64,000 nucleotides of DNA from Planctomycetota bacterium (GCA_022072415.1 JAJVHW010000002.1:591-64590), one strand, 5' to 3'; counted from the first letter of the stretch, positions 1 through 8,202 are shown. Notes: generated by a model from the sequence alone, not told the origin. Translations and numbers: made by a program.

Positions 1-141
1 GCCCCATCGGGCCGCGCTCGTGTAGAGGTCCGTCTGCGCGAGGAGCAGCGCGTCGTCCCAGAGGAACACGCCGCGGAGACCCGGCGCCTGCGCCGCAAAG
101 GAGAGGGCCGCGACGGCCATGCAGAGGAGGGCGCGATGCAC
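1..141 (-). CDS. N-terminal part of a membrane protein gene running off the left edge (partial)
   Basis: The minus frame is open from 141 to 1: (V)HRALLCMAVAALSFAAQAPGLRGVFLWDDALLLAQTDLYTSAARWG. It has a hydrophobic leader. The start is GTG 141 or ATG 120. It is missing from the ORF track only because no stop lies inside the window. Confidence 0.3.
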   Translation of the reverse strand, partial: MHRALLCMAVAALSFAAQAPGLRGVFLWDDALLLAQTDLYTSAARWG

Positions 142-229
142 GCCGGACAAGCATCGCACGCCCACGCGGCACACGTCTTTTTCTCGCCCGGCGTGGTATC
201 GTTTGCGACCCCCGAGGAGGACTTGCCCC

Positions 230-505
230 ATGGAAACCGTCGTCCGCACCGAGGACTTCCGCAACGAGGATCAGCGCAAGTCCGACCGCAAGCTGGTCGG
301 CACCTGGTGGCGCTGCCCGAGCCACGGCGTGACCGACGTTCCGATCCTCCTCTCGAGCGTGGCCTATTGCCCCGCCGACGACTGCGCCTCCCCCGTCAAG
401 CTCGTCCACTCCGCGATCAACGACCCCAACGCCAACGCCCAGGCCCGCAGCGTGTGGCGCAAGTCGAGCGACATGTTCCTCCCCCCCGCGCCCGAGGCCG
501 AGTAG
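230..505 (+). CDS. small hypothetical protein (91 aa) with zinc-ribbon-like Cys/His spacing
   Basis: ATG 230 sits 8 nt after GAGGAGGA (214-221). Composition is balanced (METVVRTEDFRNEDQRK...WWRCPSHG...YCPADDC), unlike the R/P-rich 5' extension of ORF 119..505. Confidence 0.5.
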   Translation: METVVRTEDFRNEDQRKSDRKLVGTWWRCPSHGVTDVPILLSSVAYCPADDCASPVKLVHSAINDPNANAQARSVWRKSSDMFLPPAPEAE

Positions 506-511
506 CCCGAC

Positions 512-641
512 CGCCGTTCGACGCTGCCGCTCCACGCCGCCGCTCGACGCTGCCGCTCAACGCCGCCGCTCGACGCCACCGCTCGACGCTGCCGTTCCGC
601 GCTGCCGCTCGACGCTACCGGTCGAAGCTGCCGGTCCCCAC
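512..641. repeat. tandem repeat, ten units of 13 bp (consensus YGCCGCTCGACGC)
   Basis: Units were read directly: cgccgttcgacgc, tgccgctccacgc, cgccgctcgacgc, tgccgctcaacgc, cgccgctcgacgc, caccgctcgacgc, tgccgttccgcgc, tgccgctcgacgc, taccggtcgaagc, tgccggtccccac. The period is not a multiple of 3. The array starts 7 nt after the stop of the 230..505 gene. Confidence 0.9.
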
Positions 642-889
642 CGCCGCCGCGGCCTCCGCTCCAGCCGCCGCGACCGACCGGCTGTCCGCCTGCGCGTCCG
701 CCCGCCGCGCAGCCTGCCGCCGTCGCACGTCCGACGACCCCAGCTCCGCTTCGCCGCGCCGTCCTCCGCGACTTGCCCGGACGGCACCCCATTCCTTGCC
801 GTCCCCGCACGCCGCTCCTAGGCTTCCCCGCTTCGCGCGCCGGACCCAGCCCGCCTCACCGCAGGCCCCCTCCGTCCGCGCCCAGCAAC

Positions 890-966
890 TCCCCGGTAGC
901 TCAGTTGGTTAGAGCGGCTGACTGTTAATCAGTAGGTCGAAGGTTCGAGTCCTTCCCGGGGAGCCA
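890..966 (+). tRNA. tRNA-Asn (anticodon GUU), CCA encoded
   Basis: A cloverleaf was drawn by hand. Acceptor is TCCCCGG/CCGGGGA and the D arm is GCTC..GAGC. The anticodon stem is GCTGA/TCAGT with loop CTGTTAA. The T arm is GAAGG-TTCGAGT-CCTTC, followed by discriminator G and CCA. Confidence 0.95.
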
Positions 967-1114
967 ACCTCGCTGGCGTCGGAAGACGACGCGCGAGACG
1001 TTAACGCTCGCCCCGTTCCTGAGAGGCCGAGCGCCCCGCGCGTAACGCGCTCCCCCGCCGCGACTTCCGTGCGCCCGCCGTCGCGCCCGCGTTTCTCGGT
1101 TCCGAACCGGAGAA

Positions 1115-1139
1115 GATGGTCAGCAACCGTTACCCCCGG
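1115..1139. other. perfect palindrome/hairpin AACCGTTACCCC-c-GGGGTAACGGTT inside arm A1
   Basis: The 12-nt arms are exactly complementary. The same arms occur at 3654..3681 with a different centre (GGGG). Confidence 0.85.
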
Positions 1140-1234
1140 GGTAACGGTTGGGGTCCCGGATCTCTCGGTCTCGAACTCTCCGATTCTCGCGTTTCAGAAC
1201 GGGCTTGTTTAACGCTCCGGAGACATCCTGGGTC

Positions 1235-1257
1235 CCATCTTCCGGCGTTTCGAACTC
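1235..1257 (+). repeat. 23-bp core CCATCTTCCGGCGTTTCGAACTC, copy 1
   Basis: An exact 23-mer present four times, all in the same orientation. Confidence 0.95.
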
Positions 1258-1306
1258 GCGATGCCGCGACTTCGTCGCGCCGGTGGCACTAGACTCGCGA
1301 AGGAGC

Positions 1307-1834
1307 ATGCCGACGACGACCGATCCGATCGACGCCTTCGCCGACACGTGCGAACGCTTCCTCGCCCTCTGCACCGACGACGCGCGACCCGAGGTCGAGC
1401 GCATGTGGTCGCTTCGCTCCACGTTGGGAGAGCTGATCGCTGGAATGGACCGGTTGCCGGTGTACACGGAGCCGTATGACCACGACGAGTCCCCGACGTA
1501 CGAGGAGATCCGTCGCCGCGTCGGCCCCCGCTATCCGTCGCTCGGCTACTACCACGATGTGCTGAACCTGCTCGCAGTCGGTGATCCTCCCGACACAGCC
1601 ATCGGCGACGCGATCGACGATCTGGTGGACACCTACCGGGAGTTGGCGTGCGGCTTGCGGCTCCTGCGCGACGGCAGCCGACGCGAGGCTGTCGGTCACT
1701 GGCGCCACGGGTTCTACTCACACTGGGGCAGCCACGCACTCGGAGCGGCGCGTGCGATCCACGAGCAGTTGCAGAAGTCAGGTTGGCTCGCGTCAGAAGG
1801 CGACGCACCGGGCACGCCGCGTTCACTCGGATAG
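1307..1834 (+). CDS. DUF5063-like protein (cargo 1)
   Basis: The C-terminal half reads DAIDDLVDTYRELACGL...WRHGFYSHWGSHALGAARAIH. This matches my memory of the DUF5063 pattern (DDLADIY.DL ... W..HWG.H...ALRALH). ATG 1307 has GGAG immediately upstream, which is unusually close spacing. Confidence 0.55.
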   Translation: MPTTTDPIDAFADTCERFLALCTDDARPEVERMWSLRSTLGELIAGMDRLPVYTEPYDHDESPTYEEIRRRVGPRYPSLGYYHDVLNLLAVGDPPDTAIGDAIDDLVDTYRELACGLRLLRDGSRREAVGHWRHGFYSHWGSHALGAARAIHEQLQKSGWLASEGDAPGTPRSLG

Positions 1835-1872
1835 TTCGATCCTCCGTAGGGCCACGGGCGCTCGGCCCACGT

Positions 1873-2052
1873 CGTCAACTCCGCACGGTCAGTTCGGCGA
1901 CTCCCGATTCCGGACCATCTTCCGGCGTTTCGAACTCCGTTCCGGTATCTGAAGAGTGGGGCCTTCGCGGCGAGTCGCCGCGGGAGCCCCGAACACCAGA
2001 CGACGGACCGGCCGGGACGCCCGGAGGACGCCGTGGGTGCCGCGCGAGCGGA
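1873..2052 (+). repeat. arm B copy 1 (about 175 bp, non-coding)
   Basis: It aligns with 6073..6245. The two are identical through the core and the next 20 nt (cgttccggtatctgaagagt) and patchy elsewhere. Confidence 0.85.
1915..1937 (+). repeat. 23-bp core, copy 2
   Basis: Exact copy of CCATCTTCCGGCGTTTCGAACTC. Confidence 0.95.
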
Positions 2053-2134
2053 CCTGCGTCGTCGTTCCCCGCCAGGTCCGTCCCGAGCGACACCCGCACG
2101 CCCTCCCGCGCCCCGGCGCCGACCGGAGGACGCA

Positions 2135-2383
2135 GTGCAGGACCCCTTCGATCCCGACGCGATGACGCCCGAGCAGCGGGAGCGCGAACTCTCCGCGCTG
2201 CTCGCGACGGGCTACCTGCGCCACCGCGCCCTGCGCGCTCCGGGTGCAGCAAGTACCTGCGTGCCGCGGCCGGACGACGGCGACCGTCAACGCGAGAAAG
2301 AAGTGGATGGTGTCGCGGAACAGAGCGTCCATGTGCCCCACGCCGACGGGAGCGCCCCGCCGGCCGAACAGGAGGCACGGTGA
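2135..2383 (+). CDS. small hypothetical protein translationally coupled to the DUF2924 gene
   Basis: GTG 2135 lies 4 nt after GGAGGA (2125-2130). The stop TGA overlaps ATG 2383 (TGATG). The segment DPFDPDAMTPEQRERELSALLATGYLRHRA looks protein-like. The start could instead be ATG 2162. Confidence 0.4.
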   Translation: MQDPFDPDAMTPEQRERELSALLATGYLRHRALRAPGAASTCVPRPDDGDRQREKEVDGVAEQSVHVPHADGSAPPAEQEAR

Positions 2384-3147
2384 TGAAGACGACGATGGCC
2401 GCCCAGATCGCGGCCCTCCGGGACATGACGGTCGCGGACCTCCGCGAGAAGTACCACGAGGTCTTCGGCGAAGAGACGCGCTCGCGCCACAAGGACTTCC
2501 TCTGGAAGCGGATCGCGTGGCGGCTTCAGGCCAACGAGGAGGGCGACCTCTCCGAGCGCGCGAAGCGCCGCGCCGCGGAGCTCGCCAACGACGCCGACCT
2601 CCGGGTCCGCGTCCCCTCCGGAGCGTTCGACGCCGGGCTCCCCGCCCACGGGCGGACGCGGACGCACGAGTTCTCCCGGCCGCACGACCCTCGGCTCCCG
2701 ATGCCCGGCACGGTGCTGACGCGGGAGTTCAAGGGTCGGCTCCTCCGCGTCACGGTGCTCGACGGCGGCTTCGAGTTCGAGGGCGCGGTCCACCGCTCCC
2801 TGTCCGCGATCGCGGAACTCGTGACCGGGACCCGCTGGAACGGCTTCCTCTTCTTCGGACTCACGAAGTCGCAGGCGACGAAACCGCGCGCCGCGGGCGG
2901 TGAGCTACTCCTCGAACAGCGCCCGCGGCAGCCCGCTCTGGCGGATGATCGACTGGAGCGTGCCGATCCGGACCTAGCGGTGCTCCGGCACGGGCACAGT
3001 CGTCGTCCCGGCTGCGGTCCGTCGCTGCATCACGACGTGACTGCCGCGCTGCCGGACCTCGACGAAGCCGGCACTCGCGCGGATCCTGCAGACGTCGCGC
3101 CCCGAGAGGACGCGAAGCCTACCCAACGGTCGCCTCGAACCTCGTGA
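2383..3147 (+). CDS. DUF2924 domain protein with an aberrant 3' extension
   Basis: ATG follows GGAGG (2371-2375). Recognisable motifs are AAQIAALRDMTVADLREKYHEVFG...FLWKRIAWRLQ...RSLSAIAELVTGTRWNGFLFFGL. After FFGL the frame stays open for about 240 nt, running antisense through hicA/hicB. Confidence 0.6.
   Translation: MKTTMAAQIAALRDMTVADLREKYHEVFGEETRSRHKDFLWKRIAWRLQANEEGDLSERAKRRAAELANDADLRVRVPSGAFDAGLPAHGRTRTHEFSRPHDPRLPMPGTVLTREFKGRLLRVTVLDGGFEFEGAVHRSLSAIAELVTGTRWNGFLFFGLTKSQATKPRAAGGELLLEQRPRQPALADDRLERADPDLAVLRHGHSRRPGCGPSLHHDVTAALPDLDEAGTRADPADVAPREDAKPTQRSPRTS
2905..3126 (-). pseudogene. hicA: HicA toxin gene with an in-frame TAG at 2974-2976
   Basis: Translation is (TTG)GRLRVLSGRDVCRIRASAGFVEVRQRGSHVVMQRRTAAGTTTVPVPEHR*VRIGTLQSIIRQSGLPRALFEE. 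HicA family motifs lie on both sides of the stop. The TTG start overlaps the hicB stop (TTGGGTAG). Confidence 0.7.
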
Positions 3148-3343
3148 CGAAGACGTCCGTGCGGACGCGCCGCGCAACCTCCTCGGGGTCGGCGCACTCG
3201 AGGAAGAGCTCGACGGCCTCGCGGAGATTCGCGGTGGCCTCCTCGACCGTCGCGCCCTGGCTCGCCACGTCGAGTTCCGGGCAGAGGGCAACGTAGCCGT
3301 CGCCTTCCTTCTCGACGATCGCGGTGTAGGTGTGACGGGTCAC
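3119..3343 (-). CDS. hicB: HicB-family antitoxin
   Basis: Sequence is VTRHTYTAIVEKEGDGYVALCPELDVASQGATVEEATANLREAVELFLE. It is upstream of and overlapping hicA. A GTG start at 3343 is assumed. Confidence 0.75.
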   Translation of the reverse strand: MTRHTYTAIVEKEGDGYVALCPELDVASQGATVEEATANLREAVELFLECADPEEVARRVRTDVFVTRFEATVG

Positions 3344-3653
3344 GAGGGGCTCGTTCGGTCCGACGATGGATCTCGCGGAAGCGTACCAGACCGGGCGGAT
3401 GCAGCGTGCGCCCGGACGCACCGGTCGCACTTGCACGGCGCGGCGGCGCGAGTGGTTCGTACCGGGGTTGCCGTCGGGGAGCCGACCTCGCTGGCGTCGG
3501 AAGACGACGCGCGAGACGTTCACGCTCGCCCCGTTCCTGAGACGCCGAGCGCCCCGCGCGTAACGCGCTCCCCCGCCGCAACTTCCGCGCGCACAGTGTC
3601 GCGACGGCGTTGCGCCCGCGATTCTCGGTTCCGAACCGGAGAAGATGGTCGGC

Positions 3654-3681
3654 AACCGTTACCCCGGGGGGGGTAACGGTT
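3654..3681. other. hairpin AACCGTTACCCC-gggg-GGGGTAACGGTT inside arm A2
   Basis: It has the same 12-nt arms as 1115..1139 with a different loop. Confidence 0.85.
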
Positions 3682-3766
3682 GGGGTCCCGGATCTCGCGG
3701 TCTCGAACTCTCCGATTCTCGCGTTTCAGAATGGGCTTGTTTGACGCTCCGGAGACATCCGGGGTC

Positions 3767-3789
3767 CCATCTTCCGGCGTTTCGAACTC
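3767..3789 (+). repeat. 23-bp core, copy 3
   Basis: Exact copy. Confidence 0.95.
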
Positions 3790-4239
3790 GGGCGGCCGGC
3801 ACGGACGAGACGTCGGCGACGCACGTGCCCACGCTCCTGGCGAGAAGGTGACACGTCCGGTCGGGCCGCTCGTCCGCTAGCATCCTCTCCAGCTGCGATC
3901 GTTTCGTACCGGACTGCGTGGAGGACGACGTGAGCAACTCGGAGGATCTGCTTCAGCGGACGTACGCAGCGCGTGACGCGTTCTGGAAGGAGTGGGGCGA
4001 CGTTGACCCTGACGTACTCGCGCCGCTCATCAGTCCCGCGTTCATGGGCGGTCCGAAGTGGCCGAACCTCCGGCAGGCGCTCGCGACGGTTAGACGGGGT
4101 TCGCTCACTCTGCTCGCGAGCAACGGCCTCTCCGACCCCTTCGACGACGAGGACCCACCGACACAGCAAGGATTCGGACTCGAGTTCTTCGCCGTCACGA
4201 AGGACGAGGTCCCCTCACCGGCTACTGCGTCGTGGTTGT

Positions 4240-5647
4240 GGGGTACGGTCAAGAGTTGTGGACGGCGACCCCGGAACGAAGTGCGGCGTACCCTTGGTGC
4301 CTTGTGCAAACGAGGCCACCAGAACGCCCCTACACGGGGCAGGAGTACGCCGCATGTCCAAGGGTACGGAACAGGGAGCCCAGGCGCCAGCAGCCACGGT
4401 CGTCCGCGACGTGCTGACCGAGATCGCGCGAGCCGGTGCGAAGAAGATGCTCGCGCAGGCGCTTGAGGACGAGGTCGCCGCGTACATCGCGGCGGCCGTC
4501 GAGGAGCGGGACGAGCGGGGCCGGCGGCTCGTCGTGCGCAACGGCCACGCGCAGGAGCGCGAGGTCCAGACGGGCCTGGGCCCGGTGCCGGTGCGGGCCC
4601 CGCGCGTACGCGACGGCCGGACGGACGGGGTCGGCGAGCCCGTGCGCTACACGAGCAAGATCCTGCCGCCGTACCTGCGCAAGACGCGCTCGGTCGAGGA
4701 ACTGCTCCCGTGGCTGTACCTCTCGGGCGTTTCGACGAACGGCTTCCAGCAGGCGCTGGCGTCGATCTTCGGGCCGGACGCGCCGGGTCTGTCGTCGCGG
4801 ACGATCGTGCGGCTCAAGGAGGTGTGGGAGGAGGAGTACGAGGCGTGGACCAGGCGGCCGCTCGGATCGAAGCGGTACGTGTACCTGTGGGTCGACGGCG
4901 TCCACGTGAACGTGCGCCTGACCGGCGAGCGGGCCTGCATCCTCGTCGTGATCGGCGCGACCTCGGACGGCGAGAAGGTGCTGCTCGCGGTCCACGACGG
5001 GGTGCGCGAGAGCGAGGAGTCGTGGAAGGACGTGCTGCTCTCGCTGCGCGACCGCGGGATGACGGTCGCCCCTGAACTCGCGATCGGCGACGGCGCGCTC
5101 GGCTTCTGGGCCGCCCTCCCGAAGGTCTTCCCGACGACGCGTGAGCAGCGGTGCTGGGTCCACAAGACGGCGAACGTCCTGAACAAGCTCCCGAAGACGC
5201 TGCACCCGGAGGCGAAGCGCCACCTGCATCAGATCTGGATGGCCGAGAGCCGGGCGAACGCGTTGCGCGCCCTCGCGAGCTTCGGCGAGTTGTTCCGCGC
5301 GAAGTACCCGAAGGCCGTCGAGTGCGTCGAGAAGGACAGGGACGCGCTGCTCGCCTTCTACGACTTCCCGGCCGAGCACTGGAAGCATCTGCGGACCACG
5401 AACCCGATCGAGTCCACCTTCTCCACCGTGAGGCTGCGGACCGACCGGACCAAGGGGTCCGGCTCACGCATCGCCTGCCTCACGATGGTCTTCAAGCTGT
5501 GCCAGTCGGCCGAGCGCTCGTGGCGCCGGCTCGACGCTGTCGAACGCCTCGGCGACCTCGTCCAGGGCGTCCGCTTCCAGGACGGCATCAAGGTCGCCGC
5601 ATGAACGACCCGCGCCGGCCGCCGTCCACAACTCTTGACCGTACCCC
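4240..5647 (+). mobile_element. IS256-family insertion sequence (1408 bp)
   Basis: Terminal inverted repeats GGGGTACGGTCAAGAGTTGTGGACGGC lie at 4240-4266 and, reverse-complemented, at 5621-5647. A 9-bp direct target duplication CGTGGTTGT lies at 4231-4239 and 5648-5656. Confidence 0.9.
4354..5604 (+). CDS. IS256-family (Mutator-like DDE) transposase
   Basis: 416 aa. AGGAG lies 8 nt upstream. Family-typical blocks are YLWVDGVHVNVR, ILVVIGATSDGEKVLLAV, CWVHKTANVLNKLPK and TTNPIESTFSTVRLR. Confidence 0.9.
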   Translation: MSKGTEQGAQAPAATVVRDVLTEIARAGAKKMLAQALEDEVAAYIAAAVEERDERGRRLVVRNGHAQEREVQTGLGPVPVRAPRVRDGRTDGVGEPVRYTSKILPPYLRKTRSVEELLPWLYLSGVSTNGFQQALASIFGPDAPGLSSRTIVRLKEVWEEEYEAWTRRPLGSKRYVYLWVDGVHVNVRLTGERACILVVIGATSDGEKVLLAVHDGVRESEESWKDVLLSLRDRGMTVAPELAIGDGALGFWAALPKVFPTTREQRCWVHKTANVLNKLPKTLHPEAKRHLHQIWMAESRANALRALASFGELFRAKYPKAVECVEKDRDALLAFYDFPAEHWKHLRTTNPIESTFSTVRLRTDRTKGSGSRIACLTMVFKLCQSAERSWRRLDAVERLGDLVQGVRFQDGIKVAA

Positions 5648-6072
5648 CGTGGTTGTACGCGCTGCTATGGCAGGTCTGCTTGAATGCGGCGGACACCGGG
5701 AAGTTCCGCGCCATGATCGATCAGTACGGGGTGATCGTGACCGAGCTCTACGACGTGAACGTCCCCGATACCTGGAAAAACTCGGAGGGTCGCGTGGGTG
5801 TCATCCTCGGGCTCAGCGAGGCGAGCGCGTCCGGCGTGCCATCGGAGGTCGTGCTCCCGCTTGAGCCGGTCCGCGTCGTGAACGTGAAGCTCCTGACGCT
5901 TGCGGAGCTGGAGTACGCCGCAAAGCACGGCGCCGAGGGCCGCGCGGAGCTCGCGCGTCGCTTCCAGTCGACCCCAGGGGCTCAGCGATCCAGCCTGACA
6001 CGGCCCTCCGTGATCTGACCCCCGGACTAGCCACTGGACGCGACGGGCGCGCGGGCGGCCGGAGTTCCTCCG

Positions 6073-6245
6073 CGTCAACCCGGTCGGCTCAGTTCGGCAA
6101 CTTCGTGTCTGGTCCCCCATCTTCCGGCGTTTCGAACTCCGTTCCGGTATCTGAAGAGTAGGACCCCCGAAGCGAGTCGCCGCGAGGGCCGCGATCACCG
6201 GAGAACGGACCGGCCGGGACGCCCGAAGGGTGCCGCGAACCGAGG
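6073..6245 (+). repeat. arm B copy 2, ending about 5-10 nt from the stop of the next chromosomal gene
   Basis: See 1873..2052. Confidence 0.85.
6117..6139 (+). repeat. 23-bp core, copy 4
   Basis: Exact copy. Confidence 0.95.
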
Positions 6246-6254
6246 GTACGAGCC

Positions 6255-7412
6255 TCAACGCCGGGCGACGAGCACGACGATCTTCTTCGAGTACCCGCTG
6301 AGCACGATCTCGTCCGCGTCGTTGCCGGGGACGAGGTCCGCGGCGATCTGCGTGTGGCCGCGGCCGCTGTCGCGGAAGATCGTGACCGGGTCGTACCCGG
6401 CTTCGCCCTCGACGAGCAGGCGGCAGAGCGCGTGGAAGCCGTAGAGCGCAAGCGGCGCGTCGCCGCCGCGCGTGCCCGGCAGCGGGAAACGGCCGGTGAC
6501 GATGCCGCGAAGGCCGCTGGACTTCCCCTCCTCGTCGATCACGTCGAACTTCCAGCCGCCTGCGCCGTCCCTGACGAAGTGCTGGACGCGGCCCCAGTAG
6601 CCGCACGCGTACGCGCCGCTCGCTTCGTCGACGCAGACGCGGCCGTAGCCGCCCTCCTCCTGATGGACGACCTTCGCGGAACCGGGCCGGTCGAGGTCCG
6701 CGTAGACGACGTCGCCTCCGGCGACCACGGCGAACGCCTCGTGCGGCGCGCGCCCGGCCGGGTCGCGGAGGATCACGACGTCCTTCATCCGGGGACGCGG
6801 GTCCTTCGGCTGCGGGTCGGCGAACGTCCGAGGTCCGCCGTAGGCGAGCGACGAGGTCCAGGTGCCGCCGGCGTGCGGCGTCAGGACGTGCAGTTCGTTG
6901 GCGTAGGTCGCCGCGACGAGGCGCACCGGCCCGCCGGGCGTCGCGGGAGGAACGGCCGCGATCCCGTGGACGTACGCCCCGGCGTCGAAGATGCGCCTCG
7001 CGCGCCAGCCGCCGCCGGCCTTCACCACCTGGACGACGTTGCCGCCGACTCCGTCCTGCCCCGGCTCGTAGCAGCCGGCGTAGATCTCCTCCCCCGGCAC
7101 CTCCGGGTCCGCGTCGGCGATGCAGAGTCCCGTCATCTCGCTGTGGTTCTCGTAGATCACCGCCGCCGCGGGCGCGACGCCGCCGTGGAACGCGACGTGG
7201 ACCATGTGTCCCGCCTGGTCCACACCGACGATCTGGAGATCCGGGTCCGACGAGTCGGGGCGCCCGACCTTCACCGTCTCGAAGCCCGAGTCGCCTTCCC
7301 ACACGACGACCGGCTCCCAGCGGACGCGGGCGGCGGACGTCGCCGCGGGAGTTGCACAGGCGCCGAACGCGAGGACCGGCGCGACGAGGACGAGACTCCG
7401 GATGCGGTTCAT
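6255..7412 (-). CDS. lipoprotein, probable beta-propeller (FG-GAP/VCBS-like) fold
   Basis: GAAGGAGG lies upstream. The signal plus lipobox is LVAPVLAFGAC. Repeated G-rich strand motifs are present. Confidence 0.6.
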   Translation of the reverse strand: MNRIRSLVLVAPVLAFGACATPAATSAARVRWEPVVVWEGDSGFETVKVGRPDSSDPDLQIVGVDQAGHMVHVAFHGGVAPAAAVIYENHSEMTGLCIADADPEVPGEEIYAGCYEPGQDGVGGNVVQVVKAGGGWRARRIFDAGAYVHGIAAVPPATPGGPVRLVAATYANELHVLTPHAGGTWTSSLAYGGPRTFADPQPKDPRPRMKDVVILRDPAGRAPHEAFAVVAGGDVVYADLDRPGSAKVVHQEEGGYGRVCVDEASGAYACGYWGRVQHFVRDGAGGWKFDVIDEEGKSSGLRGIVTGRFPLPGTRGGDAPLALYGFHALCRLLVEGEAGYDPVTIFRDSGRGHTQIAADLVPGNDADEIVLSGYSKKIVVLVARR

Positions 7413-7422
7413 GGGACCTCCT

Positions 7423-8202
7423 TCACGCCGCCTCGAGCGGCACCACCTGGATCGAACCTGTCGCGGGACAGCGCGAGACCGACACGCGGACGCGGTATGC
7501 GGTCCGGACGTTCTCTTCCGTGAGGACTTCGTCCGGAGCGCCGACGGCGAGGATCCGCCCCTGGTGCAGCAGCGCCACGCGGTCGCAGTAGCGCGCCGCG
7601 AGCCCGAGGTCGTGGAGGACCACGACGGCCGCGCACCCGGGGCGCTTCGCGAACGAGCGGGCGAACCCCATCACCTCGAGCACGTGGAGGAGATCGAGCT
7701 GCTGCACGGGCTCGTCGAAGAGCAGGAGCGACGGCTCCTGCGCCAGCGCCTGGCCGACGAGCACGCGGCGGAACTCGCCGCCCGACAGTTCGTCCACCGG
7801 GCGACGCGCGAACTCGCGCAGGCCCATCTCGTCGAGCACGCGCGCGACGACCTCGCGGTCATCGGGCGTCGGCCCGCCGACGAACCGCTCGCGGGCGTAC
7901 CGGCCCATCGCGACGAACTCCTCGACGCTCACCGGAAACGTCGGGACGCACTGCTGCGGGACGACGCCGAGCACGCGCGCGACGTCGCGCCGGCTCATCG
8001 CCGCGACGTCGCGGCCGTCGAGGGTCGCGCGGCCGGACGACGGATTCAGCATGCCGCATAGGCAGCGGAGCAGCGTGGACTTACCCGCGCCGTTGGGGCC
8101 GACCAGACCGAGGAGCTGCCCTTCCGCCACGTCGATCGAGACGCCGTCGAGGATCGGCCGCCGACCGTAGGAGAACCGCAGGTCGTCCGCGCGGAGCCTC
8201 AT
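7423..8202 (-). CDS. ABC transporter ATP-binding protein (iron-chelate/cobalamin FecE/BtuD type)
   Basis: Walker A is GPNGAGKST, the signature is LSGGE and Walker B is LLLFDEP. ATGA overlap with the permease gene. Confidence 0.85.
   Translation of the reverse strand: MRLRADDLRFSYGRRPILDGVSIDVAEGQLLGLVGPNGAGKSTLLRCLCGMLNPSSGRATLDGRDVAAMSRRDVARVLGVVPQQCVPTFPVSVEEFVAMGRYARERFVGGPTPDDREVVARVLDEMGLREFARRPVDELSGGEFRRVLVGQALAQEPSLLLFDEPVQQLDLLHVLEVMGFARSFAKRPGCAAVVVLHDLGLAARYCDRVALLHQGRILAVGAPDEVLTEENVRTAYRVRVSVSRCPATGSIQVVPLEAA

Follow-up and report, generated by a model that had tools for sequence, protein, structure and literature searches.

A tRNA-Asn-linked arm of attachment-half-site-like modules in Planctomycetota, a probable docking region and cassette-insertion site of a large serine recombinase element

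What is the role of a non-coding region of about 300 bp, built of related boxes and a palindrome, that stands directly behind a tRNA-Asn gene? The question is raised by a stretch of 64,000 nucleotides from a Planctomycetota bacterium (GCA_022072415.1 JAJVHW010000002.1:591-64590; hereafter the window), in which this region, termed arm A, occurs in two copies (A1 and A2). A preliminary description left two readings of it, a multi-site protein-binding arm and a structured RNA of about 170 nt. The reading that we favour, with moderate confidence, is that arm A is a DNA arm of recombinase half-site modules belonging to a tRNA-Asn-targeting element of a large serine recombinase (LSR), and that the arm ends in a module serving as a secondary crossover site, where single-gene cassettes would have been captured.

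The organism belongs to a class of Planctomycetota with only 17 species genomes, and all data come from metagenome-assembled genomes (MAGs) of that class: G000, which is the window's own genome, and the relatives G001, G003, G004, G005, G008, G010 and G016. The tRNA gene and the parts of the first arm copy are as follows, with the basis of each assignment in brackets.

890..966, plus strand: tRNA-Asn (GTT) gene (ARAGORN; Rfam tRNA, 74 bits)
957..1266, plus strand: arm A copy 1, A1 (repeat families D3/D4/D9; covariance-model match of 206 bits over 1086-1262)
958..990, plus strand: junction centre GGGGAGCC and right half-site J1, AACCTCGCTGGCG-TCGGAA (match to the module pattern given below, at 959)
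1098..1121, plus strand: box 1, which opens with the T-loop-like palindrome GGTTCCGAACC and closes with an inverted copy of CCATCTTC
1125..1149, no strand: palindrome with 12-nt arms (inner motif of the P-arm, introduced below, in mirrored order)
1150..1178, plus strand: box 2, GGGGTCCC + 13 nt + TCGAAC (shuffle test against the core; pattern match at 1151)
1179..1208, plus strand: 'mid' spacer, 30 nt (segmentation of the lineage copies)
1209..1234, plus strand: pre-core, GTTTAACG-N14-GGGTC (inverted repeat of the 5' part of box 2)
1235..1257, plus strand: core copy 1, the junction of arm A with cargo 1 (exact repeat; empty site in relatives)

The boxes, the palindrome and the core that had been described are all present in both copies. 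The inverted box, GGTTCCGAACCGGAGAAGATGGTC, lies at 1098-1121 and 3627-3650, its start having been placed 10 nt early, at 1088. The palindrome arms, AACCGTTACCCC and GGGGTAACGGTT, occupy 1125-1136 and 1138-1149 in A1 and 3654-3665 and 3670-3681 in A2; they are identical between the copies, and the centre differs as reported (c in A1, gggg in A2, and g in the 98% identical copy of G003). The core-like direct box, box 2, carries one substitution in A2 (3682-3710), the core with its GGGTCCC prefix is found at 1235-1257 and 3767-3789, and the inversion described for a second arm, arm B (CCATCTTC...GAAGAGTGG), is likewise there. Four exact copies of the core 23-mer stand in the window (at 1235, 1915, 3767 and 6117), where none is expected, and there is no further copy in the 3.9-Mb assembly.

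How closely do the other boxes resemble the core? Box 2 scores 23 against it, a value that none of 300 dinucleotide shuffles attains (shuffle maximum 22, the arm being the shuffled sequence). The likeness claimed for the inverted box stands only in part: by alignment it is no better than chance (an exact 8-mer only, with 34% of shuffles equal), and it is the energy of the duplex between box 1 and the core of A1 that is modestly unusual (p ~0.02). A coding reading of arm A was rejected because the indels between the copies are not multiples of three, and a hidden tRNA or tRNA-like gene inside the arm was ruled out by ARAGORN and Rfam scans.

Does arm A belong to the chromosome or to something that moves? 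A1 and the copy on contig C167 of G003, a genome of another genus, are 98% identical from the tRNA 3' end (GGAGCC) onward, whereas the tRNA-Asn genes and the upstream DNA of the two genomes differ outside that identity and the coding DNA of their kdp operons is 76% identical. This contrast indicates that the arm is part of a recently transferred element with its boundary at the tRNA 3' end, and it led to rejection, for G000 and G003, of the reading in which arm A is a native tRNA-Asn trailer with an LSR element at its end. Arm A follows tRNA-Asn genes of differing sequence in G003, G001, G004, G008 and G016. A covariance model of the arm finds matches only downstream of tRNA-Asn or behind the P-arm (GCGAGTGGTTCGTAAGAGGGTTGCnnnTGGGGAGCC), a sequence of 30-36 nt that precedes the copies of A standing away from a tRNA gene and is found at 10 places in six genomes of the class. 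The boundary repeat can be seen in the window itself, where CGGGGAGCC of the tRNA end recurs at 3475-3483 behind the P-arm. These data show arm A to be the non-coding left end of a mobile element at the tRNA-Asn 3' end; it would be the attachment-site-proximal end of a family of integrative elements that insert there. A search of the genome contigs for the 17-mer ATTCTCGNGTTTCAGAA gave at least 119 matches, mostly chance, of which only that on G003's own contig is real, and a two-anchor pattern search of metagenome contigs and viral contigs gave no match.

What does such an element carry, and where does the core fit in? On G003:C167, arm A, the core and arm B follow one another without interruption and are succeeded by a small open reading frame (ORF), a DUF2924 gene and the N-terminus of an LSR. 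G001:C1 has the same uninterrupted series, A-core-B-ORF-DUF2924-LSR, at its tRNA-Asn. The recombinase of G001 has the Pfam domains Resolvase, Recombinase and Zn_ribbon_recom, and a Prim-Pol/D5_N primase-helicase lies downstream of it. In an intact element one would expect, within a few hundred bases past the arm, the small ORF, the DUF2924 gene and the LSR. In the window the core is occupied twice, each time with a different cargo between exact 23-mers. Because A-core-B is unbroken in two relatives and filled with cargo twice in the window, these arrangements show one recombination site in its empty and its occupied state, and the third box of the preliminary description holds up as the real crossover point, given the empty site in the relatives. 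In order, the window has tRNA-Asn, A1, core, cargo 1, core, B1, small ORF and DUF2924, and then a hicAB-like pair (minus strand), P-arm, A2, core, cargo 2, core and B2.

1307..1834, plus strand: cargo 1, a DUF5063 protein (Pfam, E = 7e-13)
1873..1914, plus strand: right end of cassette 1 (P2a), 42 nt and conserved, CGTCAAC..TCAGTTCGG-N14-GGACC (repeat D15)
1915..1937, plus strand: core copy 2, the junction of cargo 1 with arm B (exact repeat)
1938..2134, plus strand: arm B1, a conserved leader ahead of the small ORF and DUF2924, and ahead of the LSR too in relatives (repeat and relatives)
2135..2905, plus strand: small ORF and DUF2924 gene, the latter at 2384-2905 (Pfam DUF2924, E = 6e-43)
3448..3483, plus strand: P-arm, GCGAGTGGTTCGTA..GGGGTTGC..GGGGAGCC, 36 nt (left half of an attP-like junction before A2)
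3475..3798, plus strand: arm A copy 2, A2 (box 1 3627-3650; palindrome 3654-3681; box 2 3682-3710; mid 3711-3740; pre-core 3741-3766; core 3767-3789)
3918..6018, plus strand: cargo 2, split by an IS256-family insertion at 4240-5647
6073..6139, plus strand: right end of cassette 2 (P2b, 6073-6116, 44 nt) and core copy 4 (6117-6139)
6140..6235, plus strand: arm B2, a truncated remnant (repeat D5; 87% identical to B1)

The two cassettes end alike, in CGTCAAC..TCAGTTCGG..GG(A/T)CC and the 23-bp core, and their right ends are 77% identical. According to the mechanism that we propose, the pre-core and core would form a working secondary crossover site into which small single-gene cassettes recombine. 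Each cassette would end in a related 45-nt arm and the same 23 bp, its insertion would leave a core on both sides, and the captured gene would come to point the same way as the recombinase operon. The LSR would be the protein that binds the modules and moves the cassettes. An LSR follows DUF2924 in G003 and G001, and by comparison with them the small ORF and DUF2924 gene of the window appear to be the remnant of a recombinase operon from which the LSR is missing. A hicAB-like pair (window 2905-3343, minus strand) stands where the recombinase gene would follow DUF2924; its hicA-like frame has an in-frame TAG, and the HicB-like ORF gives only weak Pfam matches.

As for the cargos themselves, such homologues of cargo 1 as the rest of the class contains are distant ones, and a Pfam search gave no match for cargo 2. 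The IS256-family element (Transposase_mut, E = 7e-64) found in cargo 2 spans window positions 4231-5656, with 31-nt inverted ends and a 9-bp duplication, CGTGGTTGT; once joined, the flanks of the insertion form a single frame of 227 aa.

How is the arm built? The left half of the integration junction is the T-arm and acceptor 3' end of tRNA-Asn (GGTTCG-N10-GGGGAGCC). One grammar is common to the junction, box 1, box 2 and the core: GGGG(A/T)(G/C)CC, which is nearly palindromic, forms the centre, and ~13-14 nt separate it from a T-loop-like motif (TTCGAA, CGAAC or GGTTCG). The half-site J1 is organised like box 2 and the core. When written as the pattern GGGWSCC-N11-16-YCGRAM, the grammar has eight matches in the window, 2.2 being expected for the whole of it, and six of the eight lie inside A1 and A2 (junction, box 2 and core); the count is only descriptive, because the pattern was written after the sites had been seen. 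The grammar recurs at equivalent places in other lineages.

The modules are also akin to the P-arm. The P-arm in reverse complement makes up the core of G003_C39 and G001_C3 (21/24 identities, z ~8), the right arm of the hairpin together with the start of box 2 resembles the inner part and centre of the P-arm in G004, G001_C1 and G008 (z = 3-5), and box 1 of G016, GTTTCGAGGAGGGTTGCACTTGGGGTCC, is a direct P-arm copy. The hairpin arms of the palindrome are the inner motif of the P-arm, GGGTTGC, and its mirror GCAACCC; they read GCAACCCC/GGGGTTGC in most lineages and GTTACCCC/GGGGTAAC in the window. On G003:C40 (L151, minus strand, ~5943) a P-arm is joined directly to a core of the C39 type, producing a symmetric 56-bp site, GGTTCGTAAGAGGGTTGCCCCC-GGGGAGCC-AAGTGCAACCCTGGTGCGAACG, that is a P-arm and its mirror image. 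The dyad is clear at this site, which is a candidate for an intact attP, and is seen at the level of motifs in the P-arm/J1 junctions. The ORF that follows the G003:C40 site is methyltransferase-like by eye. On G010:C181 the tRNA-P' and P-arm-B' ends are 5.6 kb apart, with CGAACC 14 nt from the centre in the half-site after tRNA-Asn, and look like a plain attL/attR pair. From GGTTCG to GGGGAGCC there are 10 nt in the tRNA and 16 nt in the P-arm, a shift of 6 bp; a structural model of serine integrases places the zinc-ribbon motif of attB closer to the centre than that of attP, by 5 bp (PMC3783163), and GGTTCG is assumed here to be that motif.

By this shared grammar and kinship, the boxes are in all likelihood paralogues of att half-sites. 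The arm would have been built by repeats of the element's own attachment-site half-site, and recombinase subunits would dock on the modules. The idea of a multi-site protein-binding arm is borne out to the extent that its boxes share the grammar of the attachment junction at the tRNA end and of the P-arm.

Is the arrangement of the modules of any consequence? Lineages agree in the order of their modules (box 1, palindrome, box 2, mid, pre-core, core), even though the identity of the arm between them is only 60-75%. The mid spacer, which includes a third T-loop-like motif, GCGTTTCAGAAC, is the best-conserved stretch and measures exactly 30 nt in all 10 segmented lineage copies, the G016 copy included, such that the fixed spacing looked for in a protein-binding arm is found among diverged copies. 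Conserved order and exact spacing in spite of this divergence speak against plain scars and suggest that the geometry is of importance. With their fixed spacing, the palindrome and the modules upstream would provide docking sites of an architectural or regulatory kind, perhaps serving the operon that starts 200-800 bp downstream.

We consider it unlikely that the arm is a patchwork of dead att halves, left by repeated integration, excision and internal deletion at a tRNA-Asn hotspot. The palindrome would then be an attL/attR pair abutted after the loss of the element between, and the upstream boxes would have no present function. This would explain why the modules are so plainly paralogues of att halves and why it varies by lineage which box mirrors which. 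It also agrees with the loss of the hairpin right arm in G001_C3, G005 and G016, where the adjoining modules are still present, with the truncated arms behind P-arms in G004 and G003:C86, and with the tandem decayed islets that are common at tRNA-Asn. Neutral scars, however, should lose spacing and symmetry, whereas the box order and the 30-nt spacer persist and the complementarity of the palindrome and of box 2 with the pre-core is kept through changes on both sides.

Two further arms were observed in these lineages. On G001:C3 (L150, minus strand, 8403 and 5851) there are two tandem 3' parts of arm A, 2.5 kb apart, which share their downstream sequence; the contig is of chromosome size, and the 17-kb stretch contains no tRNA. 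The gene that follows the arm on G008:C59 (L149, minus strand, 3090-2810) is a small Cys-rich ORF (..CQQSCKSCGGGCYGCKG..), unlike the other cargos.

Could the capture of cassettes be the very purpose of the arm? An integron-like platform run by the LSR is a tentative extension, to which we give no more credence than to the scars: arm A would be an attI-like multi-site docking platform on the tRNA-Asn element, and its last module would take up circular cassettes, each with an attC-like end of 45-nt arm and core.

Several observations weigh against an LSR-bound arm with a secondary crossover site. The link to the LSR comes from the relatives, the window itself having no recombinase gene: the ORFs scanned in 230-7412 are DUF5063, DUF2924, HicB-like and IS256 transposase. 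Canonical LSRs need only simple sites of 40-50 bp and no accessory sites (PMC3783163), and a 300-bp multi-module arm is therefore unexpected for this class of enzyme; in place of a simple site there are 3-4 modules and a palindrome over ~300 bp, conserved in order and spacing. An LSR crossover has an overlap of 2 bp, and the repeat of 23 bp exceeds it. Dyad symmetry at the pre-core/core site is not significant by shuffle test in A1, nor is it in other lineages, and the by-eye idea that the pre-core and core of A1 form a significant dyad was given up on that test. Homologous recombination between 300-bp arms could account for the tandem of A1 and A2. When further cassettes were sought by means of the P2 arm, only the two were found, both in G000; cassette mobility thus rests on two cases and the empty sites. 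In G010 there are LSR/B-arm units without arm A, which start inside the core (TCCGGCGTTTCG) behind three unrelated flanks, so that the LSR's own end may lie in the core and arm A may be a separate layer, which would give the arm and the LSR unit a two-layer history. The confinement of the data to MAGs of a single 17-genome class counts on the same side.

Some details of the relatives bear on the extent of the element. No confident match to its right end was found in the 69 kb downstream of the G001:C1 copy, where there is one weak candidate at 91151, and no synteny was found downstream. The LSR of G001:C1 (L148, 8260-9750) is in two frames, one with Resolvase and Recombinase and the other with Zn_ribbon_recom and a coiled coil, which reflects either a frameshift or an assembly error. 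By eye, the gene upstream of tRNA-Asn in G001 resembles the upstream gene of the window. In the window, about ten tandem 13-bp units (CGCTCGACGCTGC-like) occupy 512-641, between the small upstream gene and the tRNA.

Arm B is conserved in its own right. Its copies (window 1938-2134 and 6140-6235; L170, L171, L173 and L174) are 76-87% identical across families of the class, at least the conservation of kdp coding DNA, and it always stands before the small ORF, DUF2924 and LSR. G010:C86 has two copies 1.6 kb apart, each of which seems to end after ~190 bp in the printed stretch. Arm B gave no Rfam match; it may act as a leader RNA or mark the true end of the element.

Is arm A an RNA rather than a DNA site? 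We consider it improbable, and less probable than the scars, that a structured RNA of 170 nt is transcribed from the plus strand, whether in the trailer of the tRNA or in a 5' leader to the cargo or the recombinase operon. Its fold would consist of the hairpin and a stem of box 2 with the pre-core, closed in some lineages by box 1 with the core, and it would control processing, termination or translation. Four candidate helices were tested on a hand-anchored alignment of eight copies, with 500 shuffles each and with slid controls:

Hairpin helix: 79.5% of cells paired, covariation 0.386, shuffled mean 0.18, reached by 0 of 500 shuffles
Box 2 : pre-core helix: 69.5% paired, covariation 0.242, shuffled mean 0.145, reached by 0 of 500
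Box 1 : core helix: 59% paired, covariation 0.191, shuffled mean 0.136, reached by 17 of 500
Box 1 : box 2 helix: 61.5% paired, covariation 0.085, shuffled mean 0.099, reached by 378 of 500

The hairpin and the box 2 : pre-core helix exceed their slid controls too, which together with a 57-pair RNAalifold consensus (11 pairs with double changes), an arm orientation that is always that of the downstream genes and a folding z of -3.7 in G003_C39 speaks for RNA. The covariation term of that consensus is, however, about zero (+0.52), and the folding z is only -1.7 for the 177 nt of A1, where 10 of 200 shuffles fold equally well, and -0.9 for G004. The closing helix fares worse. The minimum-energy fold of A1 does pair the 1098-1121 region with 1232-1257, yet the covariation of box 1 with the core is equalled by its own -1 slid control, and the box 1 : box 2 helix has no support. 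The partner of box 1 also switches: its complement is the core in A1 (p 0.02) and in G001_C3 (p <= 0.003), but box 2 in G003_C39 and G005. Covariation analysis therefore upholds two of the helices and not the one that was to close the 170-nt RNA (1088-1111 with 1235-1257), and the hairpin is absent in three lineages.

Which molecule, then, do the two supported helices reflect? The inverted-repeat duplex energies are equal on both strands. The ratio of G.T to A.C mismatches is 1:3 in the hairpin and 5:12 in box 2 : pre-core, so that the wobble signature expected of an RNA on the plus strand is missing; equal strands without such an excess fit DNA dyads. Symmetric protein-binding sites covary as stems do, and the two helices therefore fit DNA dyads equally well. 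An Rfam cmscan of 1-8000 at E <= 1 found the tRNA only, and simple promoter and terminator scans found no promoter-like or terminator-like site. From these sequence signatures, arm A is most likely DNA and not an RNA gene.

The least credible of the alternatives is a folded single-stranded DNA site. Extrusion of the inverted repeats, as a hairpin or cruciform, would let a recombinase read the shape of the palindrome and the box 2/pre-core stem as in an integron attC, with crossover at the base (core). In its favour, complementarity is kept while the sequence varies, pairing is equally good on both strands and the crossover point lies at the foot of the box 2 : pre-core stem. Against it, neither an IntI-type tyrosine recombinase nor a HUH enzyme was seen beside any of the copies, the one kind of recombinase found being the LSR, an enzyme of duplex DNA (PMC3783163); the motifs (centre, T-loop-like motif, GGGTTGC) are conserved in sequence and not in shape alone, and three lineages do without the hairpin.

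What would it mean if arm A is, as we propose, a docking arm for the LSR? Large serine integrases are prized in genome engineering, being thought to need just two short, simple sites. A conserved 300-bp arm of half-sites beside an LSR, with one module into which small genes have been taken up, suggests either an undescribed regulatory or architectural layer or a natural form of cassette capture by serine recombinases. If the capture-platform reading is true, this would be an integron-like system on another recombinase superfamily, with an LSR that uses auxiliary sites. For an uncultured lineage of Planctomycetota there is now a concrete, testable site grammar (centre GGGGWSCC, 13-14-nt spacer, T-loop-like motif), and the tRNA-Asn hotspot of tandem islets is accounted for. 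If the arm consists only of scars, the locus is an ordinary tRNA-linked island.

How does the arm compare with known systems? The closest frame of reference is the model of large serine integrase attachment sites drawn from A118/LI, Bxb1 and phiC31 (Rutherford et al. 2013, PMC3783163). As there, an LSR with Resolvase, Recombinase and zinc-ribbon domains stands beside the site in the relatives, and each side of a junction is made up of centre, spacer and outer motif. If GGTTCG is the zinc-ribbon motif, its 6-bp displacement towards the centre in the tRNA, relative to the P-arm, would be the counterpart of the published shift of 5 bp. The symmetric site of G003:C40 measures ~56 bp. The published sites are single and of 40-50 bp, in contrast to ~300 bp with 3-4 half-site-like modules and a palindrome here, and the occupied site is flanked by 23 identical bp instead of a 2-bp overlap.

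DUF2924 directly upstream of an LSR is also the arrangement of the DUF2924 and resolvase-family integrase module of Wolbachia phage WO and Acidithiobacillus phage AcaML1. Protein identity to that module is only 25-32%, and the Planctomycetota elements differ in being small and tRNA-Asn-targeting and in having arm A; one intact copy, in G001, has Prim-Pol/D5_N. Phage WO is not known to have an arm comparable to arm A, and a search of the literature on DUF2924 yielded no more than brief mentions in papers on Wolbachia.

The SCC elements offer a further likeness. Ccr enzymes, which are large serine recombinases, mobilise them at the rlmH 3' end, where they are stacked in tandem; their units are bounded by direct repeats of integration-site sequence, and some have no recombinase. 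Here, too, tandem units of LSR type stand at the 3' end of one gene, bounded by repeats, some without a recombinase; the target is a tRNA gene and not a protein gene, the repeats include a 300-bp arm, and the recombinase subfamily probably differs.

The integron platform shares a multi-box site upstream of a recombinase gene and the entry, in one orientation, of single, mostly promoterless genes that each have a conserved recombination end. It uses the tyrosine enzyme IntI, whereas the enzyme here is a serine recombinase; there is no GTTRRRY core and there are no R''/L''/L'/R' boxes of the attC type, no attC-like inverted repeat is visible at the cassette ends, each site holds one cassette, and the platform is itself mobile on a tRNA-targeting element. 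By analogy, arm A may also be likened to the res site of Tn3/gamma-delta, in which several serine-recombinase sites stand upstream of the gene and crossover takes place at only one; in arm A the enzyme is of the large type, the sequence and spacing of the modules are unrelated to res, and the reaction would be insertion and excision, not cointegrate resolution. Measured against all of these, tRNA-linked tandem islets are nothing out of the ordinary; the uncommon features are the conserved multi-module arm next to an LSR and the insertion of cassettes into one of its modules.

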